Shown in pieces: positions 33,649 through 64,000 of a stretch of DNA of 64,000 bases. Source of the DNA: Euglena gracilis. Taxonomy: Eukaryota. The notes beneath the pieces are model-generated. The model saw only the letters and a list, made by a program, of their open reading frames with translations. It was not told the DNA's origin and did no database searches. Both the position numbers and the translations under genes were made by a program. The stretch is from positions 16,262,140-16,326,139 of the forward strand of contig CP154954.1 in assembly GCA_039621445.1 (NCBI GenBank). The letters are read 5' to 3'. The first letter of the stretch is position 1; every line of letters begins with the position of its first letter.

Positions 33649-33921
33649 GTGGGTAGCGACTGTGATCACCCAGGCAGTCGGGTTCATCAGTGCAGATTGG
33701 ACTCAATTTGCTGGACGATGTTTACTTTCTGGTGCAGTGCTAAGTCACATTGGTATGGACAGCTGAAGAAAGACGTGAGGTCAGTGTATATACCGAGATC
33801 AAGATACTACATACGCCTGTGATGTTGTGATTAGTTGGTTAGTCCGCAGGGCAGGGTAGTGACTGTGATCACGGCAGGCAGTCAAGCAAATGTGGGTAGT
33901 GACTGTGATCACCCAGGCGGT
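33649..33921. repeat. Three ~30-bp direct repeats GGGTAGTGACTGTGATCACCCAGGCAGTC
   Basis: Copies at ~33649, ~33854 and ~33892, with palindromic core GTGATCAC. Confidence 0.85.
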
Positions 33922-37135: not shown

Positions 37136-37496
37136 TTGCTGTTTGTGGGAGATTTCTGTTGTATATACGGTATTTGGGACACGTTGGGTTCACACGCTGG
37201 CTATTACTAACTAATACATAGGCAAATATGAGCATACCGGACCATGACCACTACAGACAACAAGAAAAGGGATGCCTTTTTTAAACATGGTGCTGTTTGG
37301 TCCAGGTTGGCAGTGTAAAATGGAGAGTGTTTTGAAAACAACAAGCAAAATCAAAAAAATAACCAATTTCGTTGGGTTTTATAAGTTCTTTTTTGGGAAA
37401 TAAATGATGCAAATCCATTCAACTCAGCTTTATTTTCCACAGATTGGATGATTATGTACATATTTTTCGATTTTTTTTCTTCACAGACCAGTACAC

Positions 37497-41638: not shown

Positions 41639-43122
41639 GCGGGCGGCTGCGGCGGCCGCGGTGGCAGCGGGCGGCTGGTGCCGCCAGCGAGGGAGGGACA
41701 AGCGAGACCCAGACCCAGACCGGACCAGACCCATACCCACACCCAGACCCAGTCCCCAATCATGCGCACACCTTCGCCACACCACACCCACCCATTTCGC
41801 TGTTTTCTTTCCTTTGTGTTTGCCTTTGGCATGGCTGCGGAACTGGGGGCTGTGGGGTTTGCTCCAGCTGTGACCTTTGTTTTGAGAATCAAAGTTACAA
41901 ACCCACAACTTGCTCGGTTTAGGTTCTTTTCTTCGTGATACAATGCATCTTCTCAATATTGTTTGATGCGGGATTCACGTTTGTTGGTTACTTCAAGTTT
42001 GGCATATGTCATTACATTTTACATTCAGTTGGCTCAGTGATGTTGGCAATGTACTTAATTTGGGACCAGTACAATACAGTTTGTTTTGGACTTATTTCCT
42101 TCTCTCCGATTTGAGGAAGCGGAAAACCGCTTCATCGTTTTCCTGATTGTTTTTGCAGGTTTTCCCTCCTACCCGCTTACGATGGCCCAGTACCTCAAGT
42201 GCGGACTTTGACTACAGGTCTGTATCGTTCTGTGTCTTACATTTGTAAACCATTTGTTGTGGCTGTAATGTCTTCTGGGAAATGTACTAGTTAAACTTAA
42301 TGCCAATGATTACTACTGAGTGCGTGCGGTTCATCACACCCCTCCGGAAATGCTGAACGAATGTATGTTGACATTATTATTCACTGTTTGAAATGCATAC
42401 CCTTCCATCTGATTTGTCCTATAATTTTACCGTTTCTCATTAAAGCGGTTTTCCGCTTCCTTTTCGTTTTTGGAAAATTTTCTTGACTTTGCATTGCTAA
42501 TCCGTTTGGTATGATTCTTCCGGTGTCGATTTCGGTGACATGTGAATGATTTTGAAGCGGAATGTCATTTTTACCGCTTCCTATGTTTTGTATTTATTAT
42601 TTTCCCCCTTTTGCAGAGGGTTTCGCCTTCTTCTGTCTCCGGTGGCAGCCGACATGAGGTGTGTATTTGCACTTTATTGCTGTCTTTGAAATTTCTGTAG
42701 GGTTTTCGTTCATTTAGACTAAATTTCAAAATTTTAGTGCCATTTCAGGTGGTTTTGGGGTTTTCTAAAACTTCGTTACTGCAAGCCAAACGTCCAATCA
42801 GAAATGGCCGAAATCGGTACCTCTTCTAAAACCTTCAAAAAAAAACAGGCCGTTTTTGGAAGCGTTTTTCCGCTTCCTTTTCCGTTTCGAGGGGGTTTAA
42901 ATTTTTGGGCAGTTTATGCCTCCTAAGTAAGAAGCAAGTGGCAAAAAGGGCGTGGTGGGCATGCCAATTTATCCGAGACCAACGTTTTCGCAATTCTCTT
43001 TGGCAGTTTTGGATCAAGAAATTCCACATTTCCAGAATCAGCATGTTTCCAAATTTACAAGAAGCATGTTTTTTGGACCTTTTTGTTGGAAAAACTGTGA
43101 ATAACGGCTCAAAGCTTACACC

Positions 43123-43556: not shown

Positions 43557-45751
43557 TATGTTGCCAAATGGCCAAATTTGTGATAATTTCCTCAGTTTCC
43601 TCCAGCAGAAGTGCAACCCCACCCTACTTATAACCCCCCCCGGGGTTATAGGTTCCTGTTTGGTGGTCGGTCCCAAGGGGGGTTGGGGGGGTTATACGTC
43701 AAGGTTTCGTGTGTGGCCAAAAACGGGTCCAAAAATTCCCTCTATTTTTGCACCAGGAGGGTAAAACAAGGGATTTTGGGCAGTTTTATGGTTTTGGCCA
43801 ACTTGGGAGGAATTATTTCCCAGCAGAAGTTGGGGGGGAAATCTAAAAAAGGCCGAGAAATTGCCAATTTTTTGACAATATTTGTAAAATTAAGCAAATT
43901 TGGCAAATTTGCAACAAAATAACAAACAAGAGCACCTGGGTTCCCTTGTGAAAGGTTGTCGGAACTCATTTCACCTTCCATTTCAGGTTTATGCGGAAAA
44001 TTGCGGAAGGGGAAAGAAATTGTTGAAAAATTTCGGAAAATTGCAGATAAATGCGGGAAATTACGGAATTTGTGGAAAAATTGTGGATACCCATTTCCTC
44101 CTGCAAAAATGCAAAAAAAATTGGTGCAAAGCGCCGGAAGGAAAAATTTGACTTTGGGGGGGGGCGGGTACCCCCCCCGCATTCAGTCCGGACCCCCTTG
44201 GCAGGTGGGGAGGTCCGTCCAGGAGGGGGGGGGACACCCCCACCTAAACCACGCCTAAACTACCCACACCTAAACACCCCCACCTAAACTACGCCCTCCT
44301 TCTATCGAACCCTGCCTTGGGGGGTCCGGCGAAACCACCCCCTACACCCCCCCAGGTTGGGTATAGAAAGAATTGTGGGTGGGTCCACTTCTGCTACCGC
44401 TGCTGCCATTCCACAGACTGCTCCCAGTCAGGTCTGGCTTCAGGGTAGGAGAGCCCAATGGCGTGCTGGGTTGCCCACCCGCCGTTCTCTGCTCTGCGGG
44501 AGAGGATATCGTATAACAAGGCCCATGGCAGGATTGCCGGTGAAATGAGCCGCGCATCGGAGGTGGGACATTGCACAGCAGCACCCCACTGAGGTGTAAT
44601 GGGAGTATCGTGCGGCTTTACAGCTCCACAGGGGGGAAAGAGGGAACCCTGGGGGGGGGGTCAAAAGAGGGTGTGACCTTCCTGAAAAGCCTGGATTCCT
44701 TGTTGATACCAGGCAATTGTTACGTGCATTAACACTAATCTCTTAACTGTTCGTTGACACATCTCTCTCTCTCTGCCTGTTTGTTAGTTTGTTTACAGGT
44801 TTTTCTGTCTGGTTGGCTGTCTGTCAGTATGTGTGAAGGTCAGGGGCCCATTCACTTAGACTCGTTCACTAGGCTCGAAAAAAAATGCAAAAAAAAAACG
44901 ACAAACAAGCGCTAAATTGAAAACAAATAAAAAACTGCAGTATGCCCAGAAAGGAAATTGCATCCCCAGAAATGTAAAAAAAAATGCACAAGGGAGAGAA
45001 ATTGATCGAAAGATAACTGCAAAGCGAAGCAAAGAAAAAAGAATGTCAATTGTGAAAGGAAAAAGGTGAAAATCACAAAAAAGTGAAAATTCCCTCAAAA
45101 ACTGCTCAAAACTGCACAATCTGTATTTTTTGCAAAAAAATGCAAAAAAAAAAGGTTAAAATGTACAGCACATCCCTCTCCGCTGTCTGTGTGTGTGCCT
45201 GTCTGTGCATCTATTCTCAGGGCGTCGCTCAACAACCCCTGTCAGGGGCAACGCCCCCAAAGCCCTCACCACATCCGGGACGGTGTTGCACGCAGTGAGA
45301 CGCCGCCTCTTCGCCATAGGCACAGCGTGCGTGTGGCGTGGACTCGGTGGCAGCAACCATCCTGTGGCAACAACGGCCAATTCTAACCCAAAAACAAGAC
45401 CCCCTGCCGGTTTTGAGCAAAAATCCAAAACTAGACCCCAAAAAACAATCCCTCGGGATGTTTGGGGGAAATACAAAAATGGACTCCCCAAAAAAACTGT
45501 GAAAATGCCCCCAAAACGGAGTATTTTGGACGTGTTTGATTTTGCCCACCAGTTTTTTGAGGTAATTTTTCGCTCACCAGCAAGAGCCACTCTTTTTTGG
45601 ACTTCTGTTTGGACTCCCCCCCCCCCGCGCAGGAAGGTTTTCTGCTGCCGAAATTTCAGCAAAAATAAACAAATAATACAAAACAGACCCCCCGAAAAAA
45701 GAGCACCCCATTGGGATTTTCAGCAACGGACCAAAAAAGAAGACCCAGGGT

Positions 45752-47150
45752 CTTAGGCAGCCAGAATCGCACTTAAAGGCTTTTTCTTGAGAATGGGCAC
45801 ATTTGGGCAAATTTACAATTTTTATGAAACACATGGACCCTGTACCCTGACACAAGCAAAAAAATTTATGAACTGTTGCAACCCTGTATTGGACGGCTGA
45901 AACTCCAGGTAGTTTGGTACACATGCTGCTTACCGAGTGACGCGGAAAGTGCAGAGGGTGAGATGGGTGCTCTCTGGTGTCAAACAGGTGGGAAGCACAC
46001 ACCCGCTGTTCCGACAATTGGTACTGGTGCTGATGTGGTGCCTGAACTGGCTTGGGCACTGCAGCCGCCTGTAAGGACACACGGTGCAATATTACATCAC
46101 ATACTGCATACTGCGTTCGCCAGCCGTCACGCAACTGATGTGTGTTTGTGCGCGCAAATGCGAGCACAAACAAATTGGGTTTGTGAGCGCATTTGCGCGC
46201 ACACACAACACAAAACGTTGAAGTTAAAACGACACGTCCTTGCGCAAATGCGCCCACAAACAAATTTTATTTGTGGGCGCAAATGCGCGCCAACATCTTG
46301 GGGAAACTGGTATGCAGAACGGTTTGTGCATGGGCGCAGACAAACAGCATGTTCATGTCAAAGGACACTGATGATTACCACAACCCTAGAAGGTTTTCGG
46401 ACGTGATAGGTGTGTTGGTGCGCGCATTTGCGCAAACCAAATTTCTTTGTTGGTGCAAATGCGCGCACGAACATTTAATCATTCACTTCAAAATAGTGCG
46501 TTGTGCGAGTCTTAGCACACACAAACAAAATTTGTTTGTGGGCGCAAATACGTGCACGAACACATATCAGTCGTGCGATACCATCTCCTGGTCTGTGGCG
46601 GTCTGTGACGTGCGAACGCAGTTCCGCACGCCAGCCATTGATTTGCACCACGACTGTGTGGTGATGAAATTTGTGGTGTGAAGTAGTGCATAATGTTCAC
46701 TTGAACACGTCATCTGACGTGCGAACATTTGCCTGCCTTAATGTGCGAACATTTGCACTGCTGTTCCCCGGCCCACACGGCCGGACTGTTCGACGCTTTT
46801 TCTGCAACAATACTGCGTTAATTTGGTACCTGAAATACCCGGATGCGTCGGGCCGAAACCCATTTTCTGGTATTCTCCACCGTTTCTCTTGAAACGCACC
46901 AGTTTTGCGCATGGTTTGTGGGTGGTAAGTCCCACCGCTTTCATGCAACCAATCGAGTGGTAAAGGTTCAACACTTCCTGTGCCCAAAGAAACGGGTGTT
47001 TGGGGCTACCTTTCTCCAGCAGTTGGTTGCCATGAACTAGCACCACGCCGTCCCCCCAGTCTCACGCCCTAGTTGTGGGGAATAGCGTGGCCGCTTTGGT
47101 GGGTGCTTTTGCGCTGGGGAGGTCGATGCCAGCCTGTTTTTAGTGTTCTG
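45752..47150 (+). mobile_element. Truncated relative of the CTTAGG-ended element, with a GCGCA-AA-TGCGC palindrome cluster
   Basis: Begins CTTAGGCAGCCAGAATCGCACTTA. About 7 copies of TGTGNGCGCA(AA/TT)TGCGCNCAC at 46145-46560. No right end found. Confidence 0.55.
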
Positions 47151-47329
47151 AAAAATAAAGTTTTTTTCGGGCCTGGGTCAGTCAAGAAAAAAATCCAAAA
47201 ATAAGACCCCCCATAAATAGGAGGTTCCCAGCAACGGACCCAAAGACGGGCATCTTATTTTGGGGATGGGGGGGGAGGTTAGGTCGTTGTAGGTCACTGT
47301 CAGCTCATTGTGTACCCACTGAATCCTTG

Positions 47330-50300
47330 GGTACGGATTGTGCACCGTATGGTGGGCTGCCGCCTTCCTGGGCGACATGGGGGGAGGTAGGCTGGGACCC
47401 ATCAGAGGGGGATCAGAGGCAGGCAGACCCTCACAGCGGCATCAGTTGCCCGTCTGTCAGAGCATCTGCCTGACCGCCATGTACCTCAGGCCATGGGGGT
47501 GCGGTGTGGGAGAGCGACACCTCAGCGATGATAATGCCGGGCTCTGCCGGTGAGACAGTCCCACCCATGCAGTCGCTTAGCTTGAATGAGTGGCAGGCAA
47601 GCACCCATGGTCATCCAGAATCCCAGACCCAGTCATACCCATCACTCACATCCACGCCATGCCAGTCATGTCAGTCACGCCCAGTCATTTCATAGGTATT
47701 TGGTGGCAGGCACGCCTTGGGGAGGTACGATGGACAAGTTCGGGCCAAAAACACAAGCCCCCCCCCCCAAAAAAAGACAAAAGAAGGCCAAGAAACGTCT
47801 TGTCAAAATGGTTGAGAGCATTCCCCAAATCAACAGAACAAAAAAAGCAGTCAGGGTATGCATCAGCAACCTTGCATGTCCCCACATCCCATGGCATGGC
47901 GCAGGGATGGGCGGACGAGTGGCGCCGACGGGCCCGCCGCCCAGTCACCCTGGGGGCCCCCGGTGGGTCGAAATCCACAGTGTGGTGGGCCACAGTCCAG
48001 CAGCCCGGGGGCCGGCGGGGGCTCTGGCGCAGGGAGGGAGCTGGCAGCCCTGTCCTCCGAAGGCGCATGCCTGCAGCGCAACACGCTTACTAACCCCGGG
48101 AGGCACAGCCCAACAACAACGTTCCAGGGATATGTCGCTCACACACGGGGCACTGGAAGCATTTTGTTTGAACGGCAGGGAGAAGGGCTTTCCATACGCG
48201 ATGCCTTCCCGGGGAGAACTAGTGATGAATTCTCAACCCCCCCTTGTCCAACAACCATCATTATTCTCCAACTTTATTTGGCTCAGTTCAGCCACTTTGG
48301 CCACTTTTTTGGCCATTCTTTGGCCACTATTGCCATTCTTTAGTCACCGTTGTCCATTTTTGCCCAGCCTTTGGGAGACTTTGGCCATTTTCACGATATT
48401 CATGCACACTGTGTACAAGCATCCATAAGAAAAATCAGCTTTTGGGAAAATTATTCCATTTTGGTCAATTTTGCCCATTTTGGGTAATTTTTAAACCGTT
48501 TTCGGCAGGGCATCGGCCTTTTTCTTCGACATTTTTGGCATTCTCAGCCATTTCTTGGTGGCTTTTGCCACGTTTGGGGGGGGGGGGGCTGAAAAAAAAT
48601 TCCGAAACTTATGGAATCAACAACGCGTCCAAAAAAAAACACATATTTGACCTGGGGGGGGGTTCGTTGTACAGGCCCAGTTGCTGGGGGGGGGGGTAAA
48701 TGGTTTTTGTCATCCATCAGGCAAAATTCCGAACTATTCTTACAAAACTGATTATTTGTCAGGTGTTCAATTGTCCACATCTATCAATATCGAGCAAACC
48801 TAACTTTGGGGCGCATGGGAAGCCGGTCTCGTCCAAAAAAAAACACTTCTGCTTCTTCCTCTTTCAGATCCTCAACACTGAATCCAGCCAGACCTCCTCT
48901 TCCTCTAAATCCCCCCAGCCAGCCGTGGCTGGCCAGACCTCCTCCTTTTTTGCCAGCCAGCCAGCCGCGGCTAGCCGCGGCTAGCCAGATACCCCAGCTC
49001 CATACTTCGGTGGGTGGGGCCTTTTCCAAACCCCCTTTATCTTCAGTGCAATGGCTCCATTTTCATTTGCACTTTCATCTCTCAGGTTTTTCTCCCTCCA
49101 CCTTAGTCTTCATGCCAAGTGGGATGTCAAGCCCGTGGTCTGTAAAGGTGTGCTATTCCCCATGAATGCAGATTGTGTAGTGCAATTTGGAGTGGTTCTT
49201 GGGTTTTCATAAAGGCATTTTCAAATTTCATAAATTTCATAAATTTTAAATAAAAAAATAATTTCAAAATAAATTTTCATAAATAAAAAAATTCAAAAAT
49301 TACTGTAAGTTACTGTAAGTTACAGCTGTGTAATTTATAAATCTTAAATTACGCAAAATTCACAATGCTAGTCCCAACACGTATGTGCCCAGGCACTGCC
49401 CCGACTCACACAGGGGGCGTTTGGCCGGACCAACCTAGCCGGCTGGCAGACCAACCTAGCCGGCTGGCAGACCAACCGAGCCAGCCAACATGCCGGCTGT
49501 CCAACCGTCCGTCCAGATGAAAGCCACTGTCGCTCCACGAGAGCCGCTGTCACGCTCGCGCCCAGCTATCCAGACCAAACAACACGCACGCCGTACGCAG
49601 TGGCGGCTGGATCAGGAATGAATGTGTACATCGGAGGGGACTAAGTTCGTTCTGCCCAAAGGACGCCCGGGTGGCCTATTGGCTTTAACCCGGAGGGGCG
49701 GACAAAAAAGATACCTGCCGGAGGCACCCCCGCCCAAAAAAACTTGTGGCCATTCGTTCGCCTCGTTGGAAAAATATCGCCAGCAAAAGTGGCCAAAAAC
49801 ATGGCCACCCATCGGTCCAAAACTGGCCACCACAAACCCTCCAAAGCTGACCCATTTGCCAGACTCAAAAACTGAACCCCCCAATTTTTTAGCTTTTTTG
49901 AGCGAGAGAACTTGTTGGACAGGAAAAAAAGAATGCAAGAAACAAAAAAAACAAGTTTCAGAAGAAAACGAGCATCTCAGGACAAAACGTTTCTGGTCAA
50001 AATCTGGCACCATCTGGCCCAAAACTGGCCACCACGTCTGGCCCAAAACTGGCCACCACATCTGGCCCAAAACTGGCCAACACATGTGGCCCAAAACTGG
50101 CCAACACATGTGGCCCAAAACTGGCCACCACCTGTTCAGGGCCACCAATGGTCCCCCACGGCAATGGAGGAGAGGACTGGAAGCCGTAGGGAGACTTGGG
50201 GGTACGACGAGGGGGGAGAGGGCCCCCAGGGTTGGATGGGTCGGGACTTGGGGGCAGTGCTGGACATCACGCTGGCCATGAGACAGGCACAGAATCCAAC

Positions 50301-51490
50301 TCCCTGCCGACCATGAGCCGTCTGTGGTCAAAGCAAGCAGACATTATTTTTGGGCACCTAAAAAATAAAATTTGGCCAAAATGTTGGAAAAAAAACCTTA
50401 AACCCCTGAAAAAACCTTTTACAAATTACTCTGGCAAAATATTTATCTGACCGAGCAAAATTGAAGTCGCAAAATCTCGACAAAAAACAAACAAATAACT
50501 CCGGAAAAAAATTTGGCATCGGGGGAACATTGTCTATCCACTCAAACTCGAAAAAATGAGGGTTTCAACTTTGGGCCCGTCAAATGCCCAGACGACCCTT
50601 GGAAAATAGAACCTTAAAAAATCTTAAAACGCCTCAAAGACAATAAAAAAAATAACTTCAGAGTAACTTAAAAATGTTTGAAAATGTTTGATTTAAAAAA
50701 ACAATGCGTGAAAACAGGGCTCTACATACAACAGGGTGGGCTTCCAGAAAACCCCTGGGACCGTAAGAGGGTGGACAGAGTAGTATCACCATGACCACAT
50801 GACCAGTTTTCAGTCTTGCACATGCAGCGCTGATCTGAAACATTAAATATCAGCATTTTTTTAAAAAATGCCGCTTCAGGCACTGCATGGGCAAAAATCT
50901 TGTCAAAGATCGTGGAAAAAAAATTGGCCCATCCTTTCTGGTGTTCCTGGTCTTTGGATAAAACCGTGCTTCTGGTCATGCATCCCTCAATTGTCACTAC
51001 AGCTGACCGATGGTTTTCAATGCACGAGGGGCAGGGCTTTACGGGAAGACCTGGTGGGGGGGGGTCGGAACGGAGATGGGGGGTGGGTCGACCCCCCTAC
51101 CCACCACCCTGGCTGTTTGGCCGATTCCTGTTCTGCCCTGCCAAAGGGGGGGGGGTCCTTCAGGTGGCTGGGAAGGGTGTTGGCTGGACCCACTGAAGCA
51201 AAGGCAACCTGCCCTACATCTGGGGTGGGGTGGCTTCTGCTCCACTGCCACCCCGCAGCCGAAAATGGGGGCTGTCCCCTGTGCCGAAATACCTCGTCGG
51301 TTTTGGTCACTTTCCCAAAAGAATCGACAAAGTTCCTCGCGTCGTATGAGGAACATGTGTGGCTGCACGGAGCGGGACTTGACGTCGTCAATTCATGTGA
51401 GCACGTGGCAATTGCCAGTCTTGTCATTCAGTGACGCAACCGATTCAAAAGAAATCCCGCTGGCACTCGTGGGTCAGTCCACCCTTTTGG
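47330..51490 (-). pseudogene. Decayed multi-exon gene of unknown function, copy X (interrupted by repeats)
   Basis: Blocks 47330-48130, 50160-50660 and 50700-51480 are homologous to 52157-52960, 53050-53660 and 53670-54135. Conserved minus-strand frames (LAIATCSHELTTS...YDARNFVDSFGKVTKTDE; EPGIIIAEV...HGGQADALTDGQLMP) are bounded by AG/GT. Confidence 0.5.
50015..50132. repeat. 24-bp minisatellite TGGCCCAAAACTGGCCA(C/A)CAC(A/G)T(C/G) x5
   Basis: Seen directly. Confidence 0.92.
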
Positions 51491-52156
51491 ACGCCCGTCC
51501 ACCCTTGAGATTCTTTTTGGATAAAAGCGACGGAAATGCAAACCGGCATCTAAACCGAGCGCTTACATTGGAGATCTCATTCGGGGGGAGGGGCTGAAAG
51601 CTCTATCTGAAACAGAAAAGACAATAGCTCCAATCATCTCCACAGAAGCTACCACGGTGCATACGGGGGTGCACCTGCCCAAGTGCACAGGTGCACAAAA
51701 GGTGTAGCGAGGGAGGGAGGGAGGGAGGGAGGAGGGAGGGGAAAGTCTGGGTATGGGTTGTCAGACTTTTGAGTTGATCACGAGCCAACGTGGACCACAC
51801 ATTGAGGGCCATCGCAAGGGTCCTGGGGCCAGGTTTAGAAACGAGGAAGACCTATTGGCCCTAAACCTTGGAGGACCGAATAAAAAGAGTGCGGCCTTGA
51901 AATGGGGCTGCAGTCCTCAATGTGGACAACTTCCAACTGCTAAAACCCAGAAATGTGCAATTCTGGAAGACTTTCATGGGACATCCAATAAAATGAACAG
52001 AACAATGATTGAAATGGTGAATCAAGAAATGAGCGCTTTCCTTCTTGACTCGCGTCGTTTACTCCGGGAGTTAGACGAAAGCTGAACATCCCCTGCCCCC
52101 CAGACACACACACTGCTGTACAGCAAACTGAACATTGCCAAAGCACCGTCAAAGGA

Positions 52157-54300
52157 GTACGGATTGTGCACCGTATGGTGGGCTGCCGCCTTCCTGGGCG
52201 ACATGGGGGGAGGTAGGCTGGGACCCATCAGAGGGGGATCAGAGGCAGGCAGACCCTCACCGCGGCATCAGTTGCCCGTCTGTCAGAGGATCTGCCTGGC
52301 CGCCATGTACCTCGGGCCGCAGGAGTGCGTGGGAGAGCGGCACGTCAGCGATGATAATGCCGGGCTCTGCCGGTGAGACAGTCCCACCCATGCAATTGCT
52401 TGGCTGGAATGAGTAGCAGGCAAGCACCCACAGTCATCCAGAATCCCAGACCCAGTCATGCCCGCTCACGCCCGGTCATTTCATAGGTGCTTGGTGGCAA
52501 GCACTCACTCGGGAGGTACGCTGGACAAGTCAGGGTTTGGGGGCAAAAATACAAACTCCCCCCCAAAACAAAACCACACAACGCAACGTCAAGAGAAACG
52601 CAGACGCCAGAAACCAGACGCCCTGCCAAAAGGGGTTGATCGGTTTCCCCAAACCAACAGACCAAAAAAAAGCAGTCAGGAGGGGGAGGGCAGGCATAAG
52701 CAACCCTGCACGTCCCCACACCCGGCAGCACGGTGCGGGGACGGGCGGGTGAGCGGCGCCGACGGGCCCGCCGCCCAGTCAGCCCGGGGAGCCCCGGCGA
52801 GCCGCAGTCCGCAGTGCGGGGGGCAGCAGTCCAGCACCCCGGGGGCCAGGGGTGCGGGGGCGGGCAGGGAGCTGGCAGCCCTGTCCTCCAAAGGCGCGGG
52901 CCTGCAGTGTAACGCAGCTACTGACCCCCCCCCGCACAGCAACGTTGGAACGTTCCAAAATAGAATCTCTGTCCAATGTTCAATTATCCACGTCTGCCAA
53001 TGTCAGGCAAAACTTAGAAAAAATCACATGGGAATCCGGCCTCGCAGGCTGGAGGAGAGGACTGGGAGCCGTAGGGGGACTTGGGGGAACGACGAGGGGG
53101 GAGAGGGCCCCCAGGTTTGGACGGGTCGGGACTTGGGAGCAGTGCTGGGCACCACGCTGGCCATGAGACAGCATCCAACTCCCTGCCGACCATGAGCTGT
53201 CTGTGGTCAAAGCAGGCAGTAATTATTTCAGGGCACCTAAAAAAAAAAACCTTAAAAAACCTTAAAACCTTAAAACCTTAAAAAACCAGAAAAATGGCCA
53301 AAATGTTGAAAAAACCCTTAAAACTCCAAAAAAAAAACTCTTAAAAATCATTCTGGCAAAGCTTGTTCCTGACGAGCAAAAACGATGTTGCAAAAACTCG
53401 ACAAAAAAGCAAACCAACTCCGGGAAAAAATGATTTATGGCACCACTCTAACTGGGGAAAATGGGTTTCAACTTTTTTGTTAATTTTGGACCCCATTTGA
53501 TGCCCAGGCGGACCCTAAAAAATATCCTGGGAATCTAAAGAATCCTAAAACACCGAAAACCCCAAAGAAAGAAAATCCGAAGAAAAAAATACTAAAACAA
53601 ACCTGCAAAATGCCGACTTTAAAACCTTTGAAATGTTTCAAAATATTTGACTTAAAAAATAATGCCTGAAAGCAGGGCTTTACCTACAACAGGGTGGGCG
53701 TCCGGTAAACTCCTGGATCCATAAGAGGATGGACAGAGTGTTATGACCATGACCATACAACCACTCTTGCCTGCGCAGCGCTGGTCTGAAAAATTAAATA
53801 TTTGGTGGCTGGAAAGCCCGCTGAATTGAAAGCAACCTGCCCTCCATCTCAGGTAGGGTGAATCTCCTCTGCTGCCACCCCACAGCCAAAAAAAATGGGG
53901 GCTGTGGACGGCACGCACCCTCCCATTGCCCAAATACCTCATCGGTTTCGGCCGCTTTCACAAAAGCATCGACAAACTTTTTTGCATCGTATGGCACACC
54001 CGTGTGGCTGCAAAGAGTGGGAATTGACGTCGTCAATGCATGCGAGAACGTGGCAACTACTGCCAGTTTTATCTTTCGCTGGTGTGACCGATTCAAAAGC
54101 ATTCCCGCTGGCGCTCGTGGGTCCGCCCACCCTTGCAAATTTGTCAGCCAGCAATGCCTCCTGCCACGACGAGAGTATGATGAGCCTGCAAGACGGAGAG
54201 CGGGGGCAGGCCACAATATCGGTCAGCGAAATGTTGCTACCAACCCCTCTGCCGTAGAGTCTCCCGGATGGAATTGGCTTGATGTGGGGTTGAGCCAGGC
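52157..54300 (-). pseudogene. Decayed multi-exon gene of unknown function, copy Y
   Basis: Paralogous to copy X. Exons KLAVVATFSHALTTSIPTLCSHTGVPYDAKKFVDAFVKAAETDE and EPGIIIADVPLSHALLRPEVHGGQADPLTDGQLMPR, then a 43-nt GT-AG intron, then LPPPMSPRKAAAHHTVHNPY. Confidence 0.5.
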
Positions 54301-54720
54301 ATTAGAAGAATGTCGAAACTGAAGGGAAAAAAGCCATCTGCAAATCGTGTAAAAGAAAATCGATTTTGACCAATTTTTGAGCTAGGCAGGACATATCCGA
54401 CGTATCCGATTTTTACCAATTTTCCCCCGTTTGCCCCGTTTTGACCCATGCACTTTGTCTTTGAAGAAAAAATACACTACACTGCAGCCGCCCTTCAGGG
54501 GCTGGACAGGAGGGGGTCCGAGGCTGGGAAAAGACGCTGGCTGGCTGGCTGGCTGGACACACCAGGGTCCAGCAAAAGTTCCCGTGCCTCTCCAGTCAAT
54601 ATCACAAAACCGGGTTTCTTCCCCCCATGTGCATGGTCAAGATTGGATATGAGGCCAGGGGATGAAGGCAACTTCACATGCGCGCGCACACACACACACG
54701 TGCGCACACGTGCATGCACA

Positions 54721-54722
<2 letters not shown>

Positions 54723-54763
<41 letters not shown>
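54723..54763. repeat. (CA)n microsatellite
   Basis: Seen directly. Confidence 0.95.
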
Positions 54764-54768
<5 letters not shown>

Positions 54769-55359
54769 GCAGTTGAGGTGGCAGGCAACGATCTTCAGGG
54801 TCTACCGTGTGATGTGGTCTGGGCGCAGTCCGGGCTGCTTCGGAGCCGCGCAGCTGCAGCCACAGGTCGGACTTGCCGGGGAGCTGCTGCAAGAGGCTGA
54901 ACGGGGCGGCCATATTTGGGAGGGGGGCCGGGGCAAAGACTAGCCGGAGAACCCTGTCAGAAGAGAGCAGGCGTACATCTGGGGTTTCTGCGGAAGCCGA
55001 CACGCTGGGCACAGCACCCAAATCGCACCCTGTGCACCATTTTTCCAGGTCAGGTGGAGGTGGTGTTAACGGGCGGGGCCCCAGGACCACAATCCAAAAA
55101 CGTGGATTTGTTCCTACCAGTGCTTTGAGCCAAAGGTCACAACATTGATGTACTTTTGCACAAAACGCACCTTCCTTGTGACCAATTTACATTTTTGTTT
55201 ACCATTTTTCGGCAAAAATTCAGCTGTTTGCCCTTTTTGCCTTTTTGGACCAAAAACTCCATGTCCATTGCATAAAACTGTCACAAAACGATACATTTTG
55301 CGATTTTCCGTGTCGACTGACGCTTGCATGGCACCTCTCGACGCACACTGCAGGTACAC

Positions 55360-55595
55360 TTGGTGGTGGTTGGGTGGGTGGGTGGTGGAGGTGGTGGTGG
55401 TGGGTAGGTGAGTGGGTGGGTGGGTCGTTGTGTGGGTGGGTGGGTGGGTGGGTGGGTGGGTGGGTGGGTCGGTGGATGGGTGGGTGGGTGGATGGTTGGG
55501 TATGTGGTGGGATGGGGGGGTAGGGGGGGGGATGGGTGGGGGTGGGTGGTGGTGGTGGGGTGGCGGCGGTGGTTGGTCGTGGTGGTGATGGTGGT
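55360..55595. repeat. (GGGT)n/(GGT)n G-rich tract
   Basis: Seen directly; G-quadruplex-prone. Confidence 0.9.
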
Positions 55596-56400
55596 GGCCA
55601 TCTTCGATTTTTCCACCAAAGGTGGCCAAAGGCATAGCCACCTTCGAGTCTTCCACCATGTACACCACCTTCAGCCAAAACACAATTGTGAGGCCTGCAA
55701 AAAACAAAGCAGAAAGAGGCCTCCCGCTGCCGGTTCCGAGATGTCAAACACGATGGAAGGCGGCTGGGTGTTCAGCACGGGTTGGAGCTACAAGGAAGTG
55801 GAGGCCATGATTCGCTTCAGCCTGGCGACTGCATACACAATCAACGGCGGGCAGGTGGGACGGCAGATCCAGGGCCATGCCCCATTGCTTGCCAATCATC
55901 GTCGAGCGCAACCACGTCCTAACCATCAACAAACAAAGCATCATCTGCTGCTACATCGATTACTTCTTCGTCAGAGCCAGCACGGCTCCGCCACCACAAG
56001 AGTCGTTTGGCATGACCCTCAACCAGACCTCACAGACCCTGCTGAAGTTTTCTCCCTCGGTGTCCGCTGCCGCATCATCGACGACCGCCTACGTACCACG
56101 CTCTTCGACCGCGAGGAGGAGTCCCCTTCCATACCCCGAGTGAGACACCACCGACCCCGCCCGCAGCTTGGTGGGGTGCTGATAGGGCGCTCCATCGCAG
56201 GCTAGGAAGCATTCTCCCATATGCGGGACTTCAAAGAGAGCGTAGCCAACGTCGCCCACCATGCCTTGTGGCAGGGGTACCCTGAGAAACTCGATTGTTC
56301 GGTCTGGAGCTGCTTCCTGCAACGCCGGTGGCAGGCCTCCGGTGTCCGCACCAAGGAGCTCCAATACCTGCGCTCCACTGCCCCCCAAAACCCAGGTACC
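55593..56400 (+). pseudogene. Penelope-like element reverse transcriptase relic (frameshifted)
   Basis: Motifs in order across frames: FDFST/STMYT, GRQIQG..PLLAN, CYIDYFF (decayed YIDD), FSLGVRCRII..LRTTLFDRE, LWQGYPEKL. These are typical of PLE RT palm and thumb. Confidence 0.75.
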
Positions 56401-57560
56401 CAGCCCCACACATCAGGCAAGCCAACAACCCATTGTTCTGGCAGACCTTTGGTCCCACACCGACCGCAACCCCTGCCCCCGCAAGTCCCCCCAGTTCCAC
56501 CTCCAGGCAGTCAAGTGCGCGATCGCAGCTTGTGCCTGGACACCCTGGCGGCCACACTGCCTCTGGGAGCCCCCATCGTCAAGGCCGTGGAAGGGCTGGA
56601 CGCGTCGCCCCTCGGCACCCTCCGGATTGGCACCGGCTCCGCGAGGAGGGCTGCTCGAGGCCTCACAGGAGTCCTCTGCTGTGGTCAGCTGGATGCCTTG
56701 GCCGTAGGGTTGGGAAATGGCTGCAAACCCTCCGAACCGAAACAGGACCGCCCCGGCAATGGCGCGCCATCGGCCCCCGGTGCCGGTGGTGTACCGTGCG
56801 GCTCTTAGGGGTGGACCTCCTCCGTCAACCGCGGTGTGATCCAAGAGGGGGCCCCGGTGGCAAGGTGCCGTCCCAAGTGTTGCCGTTGAGGCCGTCACCC
56901 GCCCCCCTCATGCACGGTGGGATACAGAAGGATGCCCTGGAGGCCGTGGCCGGCCCTCGAAGGTGCCGAGGCCTTGACCAGCCCTCCCCGCGCAGGCACC
57001 ATCCCGGAGGGTGCCTCAGAGGTAGGGCAATGCTCGCAGCTACCGCCAGCGCCAGAATTCAGTGGGGCCCACCGATGTGTGTTGGAAAGGCCAGTGTTGG
57101 TGGACCCATGCCCGTTCCGGTGCAATTGCCCACGCCCATGCCAGTGCCAGTGCCGGTGCCAGTGCAAGTCCGCGTGCCGGGGAGGGGGGGGAGATCGGTG
57201 GGTGAGAGAGCCTCGCTCTCTCCGTGTCGTCTGTGGCCTGGCAACCCCCGGTCAAGTGACATTGCGGCGTCACCCTCCCGGGACCAATTGGCCTCACACG
57301 CGGGCAGCATCCTTTCGGACTCGACTCTACTGCCCTCCCTGCATGGGTAGCAGGGGCGCCCAAGTGACCACACGCCCGAGGGCGTGTGGGTGTCTGGCAG
57401 GCCCTTCCGGGGCCATGTTCCAGGACCAAGGATGAGTCTTGGGTCTTGGGTTACCCCCCCAAGATCTTGCTTCTTGGGGGGGTACCCAAGAATGACAAGA
57501 TTCTTGGGTCTTGGGACCCCGGCCGAAAAATTTTTTCGTCACAGAAGGTTTCTCATTATC

Positions 57561-59795
57561 ATGGCTGTGTTCAAGAAGTTCTACAAAGCCGTTGATAAGA
57601 CGACCTTGCCTGATTTACCTGCGACTTGGAAAGGCCAGTTGTACAAGTGTACATTGGAAATTGATGCAAATGTTGATGGTGCCCTCACCAAAGTTCCTTG
57701 TAATCAGATTATCAAGGCAACCAATTTCTCCACAAATGGATTGCGTATTCACATCCGTGATGTGCACCGCAAGGAGTTTGCCTCGGTTGAGGGATCTGCA
57801 GAAGAACAGGGTTCAGGTCAAATGGACATTCGTGCTTTCGGAATGAAGGACGAAGTTGATCGCCAACAAAGGGAAAAAGTTGTCCTTGCGTTTGCACAAA
57901 ATGGGCTTCCTTACCAATTGGTGGATGATGAGTCCTTCCGTGACGCCTTCGGCGTTCAAATCCCACGGAAGATGGATCGAAATGAATTAGCATCCGCAAC
58001 CGTAACGCTCAAGAGTAATGCAGAGAATGTTCTTTTGCGAAGGTATTTTTTTCATTTTTACCGTGCATGCAAAAATATTTTTTCAGGTTGCGCAGTAAGA
58101 ACGTTTTCCTCCTGGTGGATGGGGGGACCTTGAACCGGATGAGATTATTGAACGTATCCATTGGTTGTGAGGGCAAATCTTATTTTTGGAGGAGCCTCCG
58201 TGTGCCATGCCTGAACACCCTTGAAATATTGAAGCAATTGGAAATAATCATCCAAGATTTGGATTCCAAGGAGGTGTTTGTCTTCTGTATTGTTGCTGAT
58301 AATGCAAAAGCATTTCAAAATGCAGCAGGTGACATTCGTTTCTGCCTCCTCCCACCGCGATTTCTTTTCAGCTGCATTTGAAAGAACAGGGAGAGTTAAC
58401 TGCGGTGAGGGCACTGATCCGGAAGAGGTAGAAGCCACTGAAGACCTCGAGGGGGCTCCACTTGAGGAAGCTTCTGAAATGTCCGCTTTGGAAGAGGCCA
58501 TCTCCCAGCTGAAAAGTAGAGGAATCTTTGCCGTTCGTTGTGCTGCACATTCCCTGCAGGTTTTCACGTTTTTATTTCCCTGCCGTAAGTTTTCTTCCTC
58601 ATCGTAGCTCGTCCTGAAAGACTTCCAGCATGAAATACCTCTCGTTGGCATGGCAGTTGAAGCCATTGAAGCTCTATTGATGGAACATGCAAGCACACCT
58701 GAGAGAGTCGCAAAGTTTGTGAACGCCCAGGTGGCTCTAGGTCGTGAACCTAAACTTTTAAAACGCGTCGGAGTCACAAGGTGTGATTTGAAATTGGTTT
58801 GCATTTTTTTTTTTCACAACACCATTTCGCACGCAGATGGAACACATACATTGATGCTTGGAAAGTTGCTCGGGAGTTCAAAGCGGTCATCACAGCAATG
58901 AACAGCCACGCCATTGAGCAAAAGCATTGGGATGTATTCGATCGAGCAATACTCCTCTGCGACCAGGTTAACAAACGTTCGTTGCAACTTTTTTGTACCC
59001 TTTTTTTTGGCAGATTGGAGTTGCAACAGACCGTTTGCAAAGTGACCAGGCATGTGACCAGTGTTGTTTTCGGTGACATTTTCATTCGTTGGTAGGCACC
59101 TCGTCGCAAAACTAAAGTTTTCTTTCTTGTGTGAGCCAACGATGTCGACCTTTTGGGCATGCGAACAATGTTATTTGGCCAACCCGTTTGTGTGTCCCTG
59201 AATCTTTGAAATACCTTTACAACCCTGCCATCAAAGCAACTTCGGCATTTGAGCTACCCCAGTTCGCGCTGGCGCTTGGAGAGGCTGCAGTGACGGAAGC
59301 GGCCGTTGAAAGGAGCTTCTCGATCCAGGGCAAGATGTTCACGAAGTTGCGGGCTCGCCTAACCGCTTCGCACTGCGAGTCACAGCTCTGGCTTGCCATG
59401 AACTATGTTTCTGTCATGCGTCCAAAGCTGGCCGAAGAAAGGACCAAGCGCAACCAGGCTGTTTTTTAGTGGGCAGGCACCCCAAGGCACTCCAACAAAC
59501 TTGGCCAAAAGTGCCTGGCAAGGCACCCTGGCGCCGAAGGCGCCGGAAGGCAAAAAAAAATGGCCTAAAATGGCCGATTTTCCAAGGAAAGTGCCTGGGC
59601 ACAGGCCGAAACCCAACCCCCCCCGGGGGGGTAGTGCCTGCCTGGGCAGGCACTCAAAGGCACTTCTGACCCCCCTCCCCCCCGGGGTTGGTAAAAAAAA
59701 AACAGCCTGAGCGCAACTCTGCTTTGCGTGAAAAGCATCGTGCTAAACAGGAGGCGTTGCTAGATGAGATCCTAGCAAAACGACGCAAATCTTGA
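57561..59795 (+). pseudogene. hAT transposase, spliced, disrupted
   Basis: BED finger (YKC...C...NGLRIHIRDVH), GLPYQLVDDESF, LLVDGGT (D), VADNA (D), RCAAH, TRWN and VERSFS dimerisation domain. Phase-correct introns at 58043-58086, 58329-58371, 58560-58607, 58781-58836 and 58967-59013. Frame is unresolved and short at ~59050-59240, and a MITE sits in the last exon. Confidence 0.9.
59455..59709. mobile_element. 255-bp hAT-type MITE inside the transposase last exon
   Basis: TIR CAGGCTGTTTTTT / AAAAAACAGCCTG. 8-bp TSD AGCGCAAC at 59447-59454 and 59710-59717. Confidence 0.93.
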
Positions 59796-60270
59796 TCCTT
59801 GTGAAGCACCATGCATGTGATGGCAAGGGCCAAGACTTGGTGTTGAGCATCTTGTTTCTTCACATTCGCATTGCCTGCACCCAAGATCTTGGGTCTTGGG
59901 TGGGGGGGCAAGAATCTTGGGTCACTCTTGGTACCCCCCCAAGAATACAAGACCAAGACTCATCCTTGCCAGGACACTCGTCCACCTTGCTTGGGCGACT
60001 TTAGGTGGGTAGGATCCACCCTGCCGCCGTGGGGTGTCCGGGACTGTGCAGCCCTGGCCGGGGGTCGGTGGTCTCTGCAGGGCACTGGGGGCTCGCTGGG
60101 GCCGGGTTGTTCGTGGCCGCCTGGGCACCCGGGCAACCGAGTGCGGCTTGTCGTGGCCCCTTGGGCAGCCCTCCTCCGCTGCAGCTCCCTGTCAGCGGCC
60201 CCCAGTGCCCCTCGAGACCCCAGACCGCCGGCCGGAGCTGCTCAGCTGCAGGCACCCGCCGGGCCGCATG

Positions 60271-60932
60271 CAGAGGGGGGGAGAAATTGCACATCGGGAG
60301 GTCGAAAATTGCAGCACAAAAAAAATTGCACAAAATTGCACAAAATTGCACATACCAGAAAAGCCATACCAGAAACCAGAAAAGCTGCATATTCTGCCAA
60401 TTTACCCGGTCGGTTCGCCCAAAAAGTTGCAACACAATCAGCCGTGGCAATATGCGATGGCAATACTTACGCCATTCATCCTGAATTTGTTCATCATCCA
60501 GCGGAAGACACAACAATTCATACTTAGAAGTTACCAAGGAACAAAATACGAACCTGTTGTAGAACGCCTGTTGCTCCTTTGCCAATTGGCCGATTGGGTT
60601 TGAAACCTGAGTAAACCAATAATAAACAGCCTTTGAACGGAAATTTTCACTACATACATCAATTTCCCAGCAAAAACTACCCCTGCTACCCATACATTGC
60701 AAAAACTGGCTCCTACACTGGTCAAATGTGGGGGGTGGGGGGTGGGTGGGGGGGTGGGGGGGTAGGGTAAATGTCCAGTGTAGGAGCCAGTTTTTGCAAT
60801 ACCTCCAGCAAAAAAAGGTTAAATTCTCAATTGCATCAAAAACTGACATTTTCCAAAACAAATGTCCTGGGCCATGTGCAATTAATTGCACAAAATTGCA
60901 AAAAATTGCACGGTGCAATTCCCCCCCCCCTG
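60271..60932. mobile_element. MITE with CAG-G-run TIR and AAATTGCAC subterminal repeats, 7-bp TSD
   Basis: Ends cagagggggggagaaattgcac / gtgcaattccccccccctg, with CCGCATG on both flanks. Confidence 0.85.
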
Positions 60933-61165
60933 CCGCATGGGCTTCACCTGCCTGACCGGCCCCCCGGGGGTTGCCCGGACGGCACTGAAGCTGCTTAGGA
61001 TCCGAGGCGGTCAGCCCACCCAACCCTCCTCCATCCTCACACACCGCGGGAAGCAGCGTGTGGGTTTAGGAGGGGTGCTGCCTGCGTTGGCGGCATGCCT
61101 CGGCTCCATGGCATGCCCCCAGGGTACCACCGTGCCACTGAGGCTGGAGGTGCAGGTCCGACTTG

Positions 61166-61323
61166 GTACCTTCAAGTCCCCGTGCCAGTCCACGTGCCTG
61201 CCCCAGTCCCCATGGACCGCATCGTCCATCATGGACCCCATCTAGTACCTTCAAGTCCCCGTGCCAGTCCACGTGCCTGCCCCAGTCCCCATGGACCGCA
61301 TCGTCCATCATGGACCCCATCTA
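61166..61323. repeat. 79-bp perfect tandem duplication
   Basis: gtaccttcaagtcccc...ggaccccatcta occurs twice. Confidence 0.92.
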
Positions 61324-61565
61324 CATCCCAGTGCACATGCCGGTGGCCTGCCCAACCCACATGCCTATCCGAGGTGCAGCGGCCACCTCTAGACCAGCCA
61401 AAATATGGACTGGAGGAAAATGAACAAAAAATATACACAACAGAAACGGCACATGAAGATTTCACCCCCCGGGCCTCAAACTGGTGAGGTTCAGTGAATG
61501 TTCATTGGTGACTTCACTTGGGAGGTCCGGGACCCCTCCTTCCATCTGCCTGACCTCCGGGCCCA

Positions 61566-61959
61566 TAACCCCCCCCAAAAATAAGACCGGGGGTCCATTT
61601 CATGGGTCGGTTGCTGGAAAGCCCGAGGGGGGGTCTTATTCATGGGGGGGGGGGTCCATTTTATGGATTTTTGCTGGAAATTTTCTCGACCCCCCAAAAT
61701 ACCAATTTTCGAAAAATTCGGCGCTTCGCGCCAGACAAATAGGAGAAAATATGCCGAATTTTTTTTGAAAACTGCCCCAAAATGGCAGATTTACCCCCCA
61801 AAAATGTCCCGTTTTTCAAAAATCCGGCGCTTCGCGCCGGCAGGGGGTGTCTTATTTATGGGGGGGGGGGTCCATTTCATGGATTTTTGCTCGGACCGGC
61901 CATATTTTTTTGAGGGGTCCATTTTATGGGGGGGGTCTTATTTTGGGGGGGGGGGGTAC
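61566..61959. mobile_element. MITE-like element with CCCCCCAAAAATAAGACC inverted ends
   Basis: cccccccaaaaataagacc vs ggtcttattttggggggg, with internal ggtcttatt/ggtccattt repeats. TSD not resolved. Confidence 0.55.
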
Positions 61960-63348
61960 GTTGGTTCATTTCTGTGGCCCAATCGGCCTCACCCCCCCAG
62001 CCGAGGGATTGGGCCCAAGTCATGATTGAAAGGGGGCACATTTGCATGCTGGGCGCTTGGCCCCCGACTTGGCTGCGCTTGTCCCTGAGGTTGAAACCCT
62101 GGCCTTGCCGTCAATTGTGATGGCAAGGCCGGGGGGGGGGTCAAATTTAGTCGGGCCAAATTTGCAGGTTAAGAATTTCGGCAGGCCATGCACAAAATGG
62201 GCCAAAAACCTTAAACCTTAAAAATGTGGGGCCAAAGTCGCAAGGGAAGGCTGAAGCCTAACTTTAGGGGGACAGGTTCGCCTGTAAGGAGGAGCGGAGC
62301 CAAGCGCCTGGGACTGGGGGGGGGGGGTATGTGATTGAACCCATTGGTTGGGTGCGACAAAAAACAGCTGCCGTGATATCTTCACCATCAATTCGTTTTG
62401 ACTGCCATTTGCATTCCCCCTCTCAAAACTGGTCTATCTCTCAAAATTGCTGTTGGTTGAAAAGAATCCAGCTGTTTTCAGGAAGCTGGGGGCGCTGGTT
62501 CTCCTCCCAAAACGTTCCGCAATAAACACACAATCCGACAACAAAGCCCACGCACACACAGTTCTGTCGCAGACCACATTGCAGGGGCTGCAGCGCATCG
62601 GGACGCCTGCGCATGACGGACATCCGCTCGCCATCCACTTGGGAGGCAAGGAGTGGGTCAGGGAGTGGCCCCGTGGCCCTGTATTGCGGGTGGAAGCCGT
62701 TGGGGTTTTGGGCCAGCTGTCCCCTCTTTTGGGCTTGTGGCCAAGCCGCCATATCACGGGGGGGGGGGTATGCAACTTGGCCTTTCGAATTATGCAAGTC
62801 AAAAAAATGCAAAAAAATGCAACTTTCAGAAAAACCTGATTATGCAAAAAAATGCAAATTATGCAAGTTGCATATCTCCCCCCCCCCTGCATATCAACAT
62901 CAACGGGGCCACACCGAAACGCCTGATGGGTGGGGGGGGGGTAAGGTACCTCCAGGCCAGAATGGGGGGGTGAGGGCCCCTCAACTATTCCTGCAGTTTG
63001 CATGAAAACTTTGGCCTAAAAATGGGCGTCTTGGAAAAAATGGAAAGGTGGGGGGGGACATGCAGGGGGGGGGGCGCAAAATATCCACACGGGCAGGCGA
63101 AAAAAATAACTGTATAAAACCGCACACAAGTACACACAATTGTAGAAATGCATGCACTGACATACACTGACTTCTGAAGAAAAAAAAACAGATTGTCAAC
63201 ATTCTGCTGTGACGGACTTTGGAAACATTTGTTTGTTTTTCAAAAAAAATTCACACTCAAGGGTTCTTGGCTCAGATGTGAAGGGTTCAGGGAGGCTTGA
63301 CCCAAAAATAGAGTCACCCAAAAGTGGGGAAGAAAAGACTCTGAGCCA

Positions 63349-64000
63349 CTTAGGCGGCCCAACTCGCACTTAGCTTTGAAAGTGACTGTAAATTTGCGCC
63401 GACGCGCAAATCCAAAAAAAAGTTTGGTTTTCGAACACCGTGGCCTGAGACTCGAGACAATCCGAAAATAGTGTCTCCCTGCACCCCAGGGCCTGGGGAC
63501 GAAAGCAACGACCTGGAACTCCACGGTCCACGGGCACAGCGCTCCCGGGGCCCCGTGTGCCTGAATACGAAGCGGCGGGTAATAAAACGAGGGGACTCCA
63601 TTGCGCATTTGCGCTTTGGCGCATTTTTTTTTTTCATCACGAAAAAAACATTTGCGCTTTCACGCAAATTTTGACTTTTTTGTAATTCAACATGTGGGTG
63701 ACCATTGCCGCACTTGGACAATGATAACAACTTTTGTGTCAACATGTGTTTCCCTTGCGCCAAAGCGCAATGGGCAGGCTTATGAAGAATGGAAATTTAA
63801 GAGTTACCTTGCGCCAAAGCGCAAATAGAAATACAATTTTTAAAATTGTAAAAGCAACATGGCTTGCGCCGAAGCGCAAATATAACTACTTGAAACTTAT
63901 CTCACAACGGAGGGAGAGAACGGCCCGGGTAGAGTATGAACACCAGAGGTGATAGAGCACAAGATATAGTGCAGGGGGACGGAAGCCTACTCTCAGTCAC
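63349..64000 (+). mobile_element. Left end of another CTTAGG-ended element, with TTGCGC-CAAA-GCGCAA palindromes (runs off the window)
   Basis: Begins CTTAGGCGGCCCAACTCGCACTTAG. Palindrome variants at 63392, 63610, 63651, 63755, 63809 and 63864. Confidence 0.65.

Follow-up and report, generated by a model that had tools for sequence, protein, structure and literature searches.

The En/Spm (CACTA) and Ac/Ds elements carry short, element-specific motifs in both orientations in their subterminal regions, where they are bound by an element-encoded protein. These motifs are non-palindromic, lie outside coding sequence and within a few hundred bases of each end, and the motif-rich ends are kept by non-autonomous derivatives. 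The P and hAT enzymes also bind short repeated motifs near the element ends, and both kinds of element produce an 8-bp target duplication, while Transib elements have a 5-bp target duplication and CAC-type heptamer termini. In bacteria, each lineage of RAYT enzymes, which are single-strand enzymes of the HUH/Y1 type, has its own family of REP/REPIN palindromes scattered between host genes. Here, we describe a 10,959-bp transposon, element A, and two repeat families, B and C, in 64,000 nucleotides of Euglena gracilis DNA (assembly GCA_039621445.1, contig CP154954.1, positions 16,262,140 to 16,326,139 of the forward strand). This whole stretch, referred to as the window, contains three CTTAGG-type blocks, each followed by a palindrome of its own.

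We give a probability of about 0.55 to the reading that the terminal inverted repeat (TIR) of a group of E. gracilis cut-and-paste transposons begins with CTTAGGC(A/G)GC, and that the palindrome private to each lineage is a protein-binding address. The original prediction, made from the letters of the window, had placed this motif at 31969, 45752 and 63349, and it was found at all three positions, in the blocks CTTAGGCGGCGTAAATTGCCCA, CTTAGGCAGCCAGAATCGCACTTA and CTTAGGCGGCCCAACTCGCACTTA, respectively (letters as written in that prediction). Its second claim, of a distinct repeated palindrome after each block, is confirmed by palindrome counts.

The region 31969–42927 (forward strand) is well supported as a complete cut-and-paste TIR transposon with an intact-looking gene. 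The left TIR, CTTAGGCGGCGTAAATTGCCCA (31969–31990, forward strand), matches the reverse complement of the right TIR, CTTAGGAGGCATAAACTGCCCA as read on the reverse strand (42906–42927), at 19 of 22 bases. The same five bases, TAAGA, lie directly outside both ends (31964–31968 and 42928–42932) and form the target-site duplication (TSD). The inverted partner ending at 42927 was absent from the original prediction. When the whole window was scanned for pairs of inverted sequences matching at 19 or more of 22 bases, a 5-bp TSD accompanied four pairs, and only the duplication of the 31969/42927 pair was free of homopolymer ambiguity; none of 30 shuffles gave any such pair. Among the CTTAGG-type blocks, the TIRs and TSD that define a class II TIR transposon were found for element A only. 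The CTTAGG at 31969 is a real transposon terminus: an inverted partner lies at 42927, the unit is flanked by a 5-bp TSD, and inside it is a gene for a transposase of DDE fold. On the evidence of TIRs, TSD, transposase gene and palindromes, the element is apparently autonomous. It contains a second open reading frame (ORF) of 318 amino acids (39269–40225, forward strand), which has no accepted Pfam family and whose sole match is near-identical (92%). Proteins 92–95% identical to the window transposase are present in other records (P0001, P0157 and P0158), indicating that paralogous copies of the gene exist.

The transposase gene (34396–37135, forward strand) consists of three exons, 34396–34998, 35223–35869 and 35962–37135, delineated by collinear tblastn pieces and by splice sites in the sequence. 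Three ORF pieces in different frames, beginning at 34423, 35214 and 35963, are collinear in tblastn with two single-ORF relatives, P0006 (756 amino acids) and P0007 (771 amino acids). The two putative GT-AG introns, 34999–35222 (224 nt) and 35870–35961 (92 nt), each contain one palindrome. The joined frame has 807 codons from an ATG at 34396 without a stop, and retains all 16 family-invariant residues. The ORF at 35930–37132 encodes a protein that shares 92% identity with P0157 over 382 residues; one source labels P0157 as an E. gracilis transcript product, which indicates that a copy of the element A transposase gene is transcribed somewhere in this organism.

The transposase belongs to a large family that is not covered by any Pfam model. 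A HMMER search of 1.84 billion representative sequences returned 892 clusters at E≤1e-3; the number falls to 499 at E≤1e-10 and to 170 at E≤1e-30. No Pfam family was detected in 36 full-length members at E≤0.01, nor in P0006 or P0007 at E≤1, and the family has no match in the PDB by sequence or profile. No relatives were found in viral contigs or in prokaryote genome contigs. Residues invariant in the 36 aligned members are D160, R252, P254, D256, R259, D306, G339, W341, H342, E384, G441, R445, E511, E512, E515 and A516. The acidic residues D160, D256, D306 and E511/512/515 are also kept in the window copy, and the catalytic three are probably among these invariant acidic positions.

An AlphaFold model built with the 36-member alignment has a predicted local distance difference test score (pLDDT) of 83.4 and a predicted template-modelling score (pTM) of 0.78. 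The best VIA-align rows against structure representatives, with further integrases between them, are the P element transposase 6p5a_A (Z 9.6, 294 residues aligned), Hermes 8edg_A (Z 8.5, 291 residues), Tn5 (Z 8.1, 190 residues), retroviral integrases (Z 7.7–6), Sleeping Beauty (Z 7.3), ISCth4 (Z 6.8), Mos1 (Z 6.0), Transib 6pqn_A (Z 5.9, 282 residues) and RAG1 (Z 5.2). Hermes heads the Foldseek rows with a probability of 0.99 and E 2.4e-3, and no row reaches E≤1e-3. According to this model, the protein is a DDE transposase of RNase H fold with a long helical insertion, as in P, hAT and Transib enzymes, without the accessory domains of those enzymes. Its N-terminal domain is all-helical, has no zinc-finger pattern, and contains a conserved arginine-rich stretch in which R53 is invariant and R59 nearly so.

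The palindromes of element A form a single family. The pattern GAAGCG-N6-CGCTTC, with at most one mismatch, has 20 hits in the window, all 20 between 32110 and 42859 and inside the element A TIRs. As GAAGCGG-(AAAA/TTTT)-CCGCTTC (full word GAAGCGGAAAACCGCTTC), the 20 copies found by pattern search (32110–42876) occur in both orientations at spacings of 30–1240 bp. In 19 of the 20, AAGCG..CGCTT is exact, and neither AAGCG nor CGCTT varies across the 19 aligned copies. Over the inner seven base pairs, these 19 copies show 11 departures from the consensus, all of which break pairing and none of which is compensated. The half-site centres, counted from the alignment, are 11 bases apart, about one helical turn, a spacing that would suit a dimer on one face of the DNA. 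The half-site AAGCGG resembles AGGCGG of the TIR at five of six bases, which is too weak a likeness to use.

Each of the three end blocks is followed by an over-represented palindrome family even when the motif is not selected beforehand: the largest family with 5-base arms exceeds 100 of 100 dinucleotide shuffles in all three stretches. The copies run along the whole length of the large element and are packed beside the end in the small ones. Another family, with the palindrome CGGCGC-N3-GCGCCG and 13 hits at one mismatch or fewer (6217–9035, 22346–24919 and 61719–61825), has the context 'CCCCCAAAA...TTTTTC' and is unrelated to the CTTAGG blocks.

Five of the 128 pattern matches among Joint Genome Institute (JGI) metagenome contigs code for relatives of the transposase (L001–L005). 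They are 1.5–4 kb long and 28–31% identical to P0006. The 24-base end pattern of the window itself has no match in the metagenome contigs. L001 carries seven copies of CGGCGAGGCCTCGCCG (at most two mismatches) in 2.7 kb. The word GTGTT-N4-AACAC is present six times in L002 and three times in L003, L004 has four copies of TCCGCG-N6-CGCGGA, and L005, a 1.5-kb fragment, has one palindrome of the L004 type. The palindromes of L001–L004 exceed 100 of 100 shuffles by the same unbiased statistic. L002 and L003 are the closest pair (47% identity) and share one word, while other pairs are 21–32% identical and have different words.

The transposase of L001–L004 is encoded by one long ORF of 482–734 amino acids, and six palindromes lie in frame inside these ORFs. 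None of them corresponds to a discrete unit-length insertion in the family alignment, which indicates that the word is written into the coding sequence; the in-ORF palindrome of L004 is located in a variable loop with two extra residues. The possibility that the palindromes are tiny inserted mobile units was rejected, as those of element A have no flanking duplications and none of the six in-ORF copies is such an insertion. L003 also contains a second palindrome, TTTAGGNGCGATCGCNCCTAAA, of 22 bases. Its four copies (24–43, 441–460, 513–532 and 578–597) precede the transposase ORF, and its outer letters repeat the TTAGG of the window element ends, as if two tips stood back to back. Three copies of a related palindrome with the core GCGATCGC are found in L002.

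These features argue for a protein site, because the letters of the half-sites are conserved rather than their pairing (19 of 19 copies, no compensated change), and because each lineage has a word of its own, which is kept inside ORFs. It has also to be considered whether the elements are transposons whose palindromes act as RNA or single-stranded DNA hairpins, such as transcript-end or processing signals separating the genes of the element, or as sites for host factors. Their placement gives some weight to this idea, as the copies of element A stand at ORF boundaries and inside both putative introns, while those of L001 and L002 gather immediately on either side of the transposase ORF; both orientations are found, as a symmetric hairpin would predict. 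However, compensated changes should be tolerated in a structural signal, a hairpin of generic function has no need of one word repeated 20 times or of a different word in each lineage, and some copies are inside coding sequence. We therefore regard the hairpin or host-factor explanation as rather unlikely.

The relationship among the end blocks depends on more than the 10-mer, which is weak by itself: with at most one mismatch it has six matches in the window compared to 5.03 expected, 38 of 100 shuffles reach six, and 26 other 10-mers have at least three dispersed copies in 31301–64000. These numbers are what would be expected if a short word had recurred by chance beside unrelated low-complexity palindromes in a repeat-rich window. 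Unlike the 10-mer, the 25-base blocks are clearly alike beyond chance. Those at 45752 and 63349 are identical at 20 of 24 bases, with a local alignment score above 300 of 300 shuffles, and the same holds for 31969 against 45752, 31969 against 63349, and 13073 (a diverged copy of family B, described below) against 63349; for 13073 against 45752, the observed score is reached by 3 of 300 shuffles. With four of the five pairs above all shuffles, the palindrome families above 100 of 100, and TIR, TSD and transposase gene found together, chance recurrence is exceedingly improbable, and for element A it is already refuted. The 150 bases on each side of the blocks are mostly no more alike than shuffles.

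The 30–40 bases upstream of the four left blocks (31940–31968, 45720–45751, 63310–63348 and 13045–13072) are A-rich and loosely share an 'AAAAG..GAC' pattern, which could be a target preference or a part of the repeat.

Family B is represented by a repeat at 45752–47130 (forward strand), which starts with CTTAGGCAGCCAGAATCGCACTTA and whose right limit was read by eye. It is weakly collinear with 13073–14620 (forward strand), a diverged copy with the degenerate end block TCTGGGCGGCGGATCTCGCACTTC and a tandem twin starting at 28584. The two are connected by two blast hits at E≤0.01 (71% and 61% identity) and three weaker collinear hits (61–63%), and the palindromes of the 13073 copy (13516–13991) are of the family B type. 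In the 45752 copy, a pattern search identified six GCGCA-WW-TGCGC palindromes (46152–46464) within larger hairpin units of about 60 bases. Across the window, GCGCA-N2-TGCGC with at most one mismatch has 29 hits: six at 46152–46453, 11 in each 16-kb tandem copy, and one at 63603. Neither an ORF nor a right end was found within 45752–47130. Family C (63349–64000, forward strand), recognized by its end block and palindromes, starts with CTTAGGCGGCCCAACTCGCACTTAG and runs off the window. It has six TTGCGC-N4-GCGCAA palindromes (63394–63879), the last three 54–55 bp apart, and with at most one mismatch the six hits of this pattern in the window all lie at 63394–63864.

Contigs from two related organisms, 15,800 from X18 and 5,874 from X19, match 44001–64000; their summed depth is not a copy number. 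Summed depth in X18 is 7.5 to 33 in the bins 48003–48669, 51338–52004, 53339–54005 and 55340–56006, and 7570 at 46002–46668. It climbs from 94 to 7570 over 45752–47130, and is highest in the final bin (32,757 at 63344–64000, preceded by a bin at 9119). The region 45752–63349 clearly combines unique DNA with several repeat families in a mosaic, and the suggestion that it forms one element did not survive this alternation of low-depth and very high-depth stretches. At 63360, T is found in 79 (X18) and 68 (X19) distinct contigs where the window has C. Contigs of both organisms skip 90–152 bases at 46161–46524, and loose contig ends at 63669 and 63753 lead into other arrangements of the family C palindrome units. 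Thus, the number and order of palindrome units vary between copies. Family C, with the highest summed depth, has the densest palindrome array, next to its end, as expected if sites compete for enzyme.

It is plausible that the blocks of family B (with the older copies at 13073 and 28584) and of family C are left ends of relatives of element A that have no coding capacity in the window. The original prediction of a transposon group with diversified site and protein pairs was upheld in part: one CTTAGG terminus, at 31969, is established and related lineages have different palindromes, while no partner, TSD or protein accompanies the blocks at 45752 and 63349 and the link between site and protein is inferential. 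From sequence comparison, the idea of a recognition code would seem to gain comparative support.

Several observations weigh against the reading of CTTAGG tips with lineage-specific protein sites. Neither the 45752 nor the 63349 block has an inverted partner in the window at up to 7 mismatches in 24, with family C leaving the window, and neither end has a TSD or a protein there. Between 13073 and 45752, likeness extends to the 150 bases upstream of the motif (3 of 300 shuffles), so the motif may not be the edge of the family B repeat. Empty sites and insertion polymorphism of element A were not seen. The intron positions come from protein collinearity and splice sites read in the sequence. RNA reads on 44001–64000 are few, 78–86% of them run on into unlike sequence, and they yield no transcript model. 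The proposed assignment of the palindromes to a lineage-specific protein is drawn from sequence. Modelled alone (pLDDT 88.9), the N-terminal domain matches no known DNA-binding fold, with a best VIA Z of 4.1 and no Foldseek row below E 2.8. The palindrome comparison covers six lineages only; L005 shows no over-represented palindrome by the unbiased statistic, and common ancestry alone would also give L002 and L003 one motif.

Some of these points would also fit an arrangement in which only 31969–42927 is a transposon and the blocks at 45752 and 63349 are internal conserved segments, such as a protein site or promoter, of unrelated high-copy repeats. In favour of this, 45752 has no inverted partner within 18 kb, the upstream likeness of 13073 and 45752 crosses the supposed boundary, the summed depth is already high in the bin before 63349 (9119 against 32,757), and the three upstream flanks all share the A-rich pattern. 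However, aligned from CTTAGG onwards, the block fits both ends of element A in one register, the likeness ends at the block on both sides except for the 13073/45752 pair, and the dense palindrome arrays start 45 to 400 bases inward from the block, as at the element A ends. Internal segments of unrelated repeats are thus an improbable origin of the blocks.

The original prediction compared the site and protein pairs to the specificity groups of plasmid partition. This analogy was not borne out, as no ParB-like or accepted Pfam family was found among the 18 window ORFs of at least 150 amino acids. A partition or tethering system, in which an episomal form of the element has a ParB-like or EBNA1-like protein and the palindromes serve as the centromere-like sites of that protein, would account for many identical dimer-type sites over an 11-kb unit and could make use of the element ORFs that have no assigned function. 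Apart from the Pfam result, element A is integrated with a target duplication, and the compact relatives of 2.7–4 kb have palindromes with, as far as seen, a transposase ORF only. Partition or tethering is thus a very improbable role for the palindromes.

If the palindromes are protein sites, each may offer two half-sites to a dimer, either of the transposase that the lineage encodes or of some other protein of the element. The presence of many such sites could help to mark and assemble the element DNA for transposition, and their divergence could keep co-resident lineages from each other's enzyme. A broader proposal, which we consider possible but doubtful, is that these elements form an unclassified eukaryotic DDE superfamily, in which a private palindromic address word is regularly spaced over the full length of the element, held by selection even in ORFs and co-evolving with the N-terminal domain, so that orthogonal groups coexist in one genome and do not mobilise each other.

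The E. gracilis genome is reported to comprise 2.37 Gb, with 58.84% repeats, and 32.7% of the genome is unclassified repeat (PMC11252322). One family of these unclassified repeats now gains structure, with ends, a 5-bp TSD, a transposase family of at least 892 clusters and lineage-specific palindromes. The family is not described in the accessible text of the literature searched, including PMC12455990, PMC11170887, PMC11252322 and PMC12501133; the transposable element tables of the papers on the genome and on giant endogenous viral elements may list it. Repeat annotation in euglenids would benefit from definition of the element A family. Should the palindromes prove to be enzyme sites, they would provide a natural set of orthogonal transposase/site pairs and a test case for how transposon lineages avoid competition for enzyme.

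The remainder of the window is eukaryote-like, with few long ORFs, long GT/AC microsatellites and C/G runs. No transfer RNA or Rfam family was found in it. Pfam searches of the 18 ORFs gave two sub-threshold hits, VMAP-M15 (E 0.0086) and OAF_C (E 0.03), neither of which was accepted, and a protein atlas search of the window proteins gave scores of 0.86 or lower. A dinoflagellate origin was considered and rejected: a spliced-leader motif has one match with three mismatches in the window, below the shuffle mean of 1.53, at least one match occurs in 78 of 100 shuffles, and a protein cluster named for Euglena pointed elsewhere.

The left part of the window consists of a tandem duplication of about 16 kb (1–15643 and 17099–31282, 96–99% identity). 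An insertion of about 1 kb (400–1430) distinguishes the first copy, and the two copies are separated by 1.4 kb of unique sequence. Each copy contains an inverted (GT)n/(AC)n pair of long microsatellites separated by about 4.2 kb (3135–3475 / 19202–19597 and 7571–7697 / 23703–23798). A 253-bp unit at 5244–5496 (twin at 21368–21623) resembles a miniature inverted-repeat transposable element, with inverted ends C9-TAGTCGTATGACC that match at 21 of 22 bases; its 5-bp duplication overlaps a homopolymer run and is ambiguous. Similar C-run/G-run ends across the window may be the source of the poly-C/G tracts. To the right of element A, 47331–51486 and 52157–54134 form a segmental duplication in pieces, 77–93% identical and with large indels. 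A stretch of about 2.2 kb at 57427–59631 is covered by one contig in both related organisms, at 4–10 times the depth of the neighbouring low-depth contigs. The ORF associated with it (57351–58133), whose start looked BED-like or zinc-finger-like by eye, was considered as a hAT candidate and rejected, as it had no Pfam support at E≤0.1.

Among described euglenid sequences, nonconventional introns carry the signature N3-CAG ... CTG-N6|R (PMC12501133). They and transposon-derived introns (introners) share the organism group with element A, both putative transposase introns of which contain a palindrome, and intron 1 fits this signature. However, the palindromes are internal to the introns and have no flanking duplications, and those of the relatives lie in frame in unbroken ORFs. 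The palindromes were also rejected as ends of nonconventional introns on account of these internal positions.

Element A works like P, hAT and Transib-type elements, sharing with Transib the duplication length only. In common with the P element (and THAP9) and hAT elements (Hermes), it has TIRs and a target duplication, and its enzyme has an RNase H-fold core that a large helical insertion interrupts between the second D and the E. The differences are the 5-bp length of this duplication and the distribution of palindromes along the whole element, which in the relatives includes the ORF. None of the 36 family members contains a THAP, BED or hAT dimerisation domain according to Pfam. Placement in hAT is disfavoured by the lack of a hAT C-terminal or BED Pfam domain in the family and by the TSD length, so that the fold likeness to Hermes is one of mode of action. 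Placement in the P superfamily is disfavoured by the lack of a P-type Pfam domain, by the all-helical N-terminus without a zinc finger, and again by the 5-bp TSD. Transib and RAG1 have a DDE fold with an insertion domain and a TSD of the same length as TAAGA of element A; however, the termini of element A start with CTTAGG, the Z scores of 5.9 and 5.2 are below those of P and hAT, and no sequence likeness was detected.

With En/Spm and Ac/Ds, which are among the nearest precedents for private pairs of site and enzyme, element A shares the presence of many short, element-specific motifs in both orientations, but the motifs of those elements differ in location and are non-palindromic. The nearest precedent for a specificity group of site and enzyme is the REP/RAYT system, from which element A differs in that its enzyme is of the DDE type and eukaryotic and all 20 of its 20 palindromes are inside the element. 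Should these elements prove to be an unclassified superfamily of this kind, they would make a eukaryotic counterpart of the REP/RAYT pairing.

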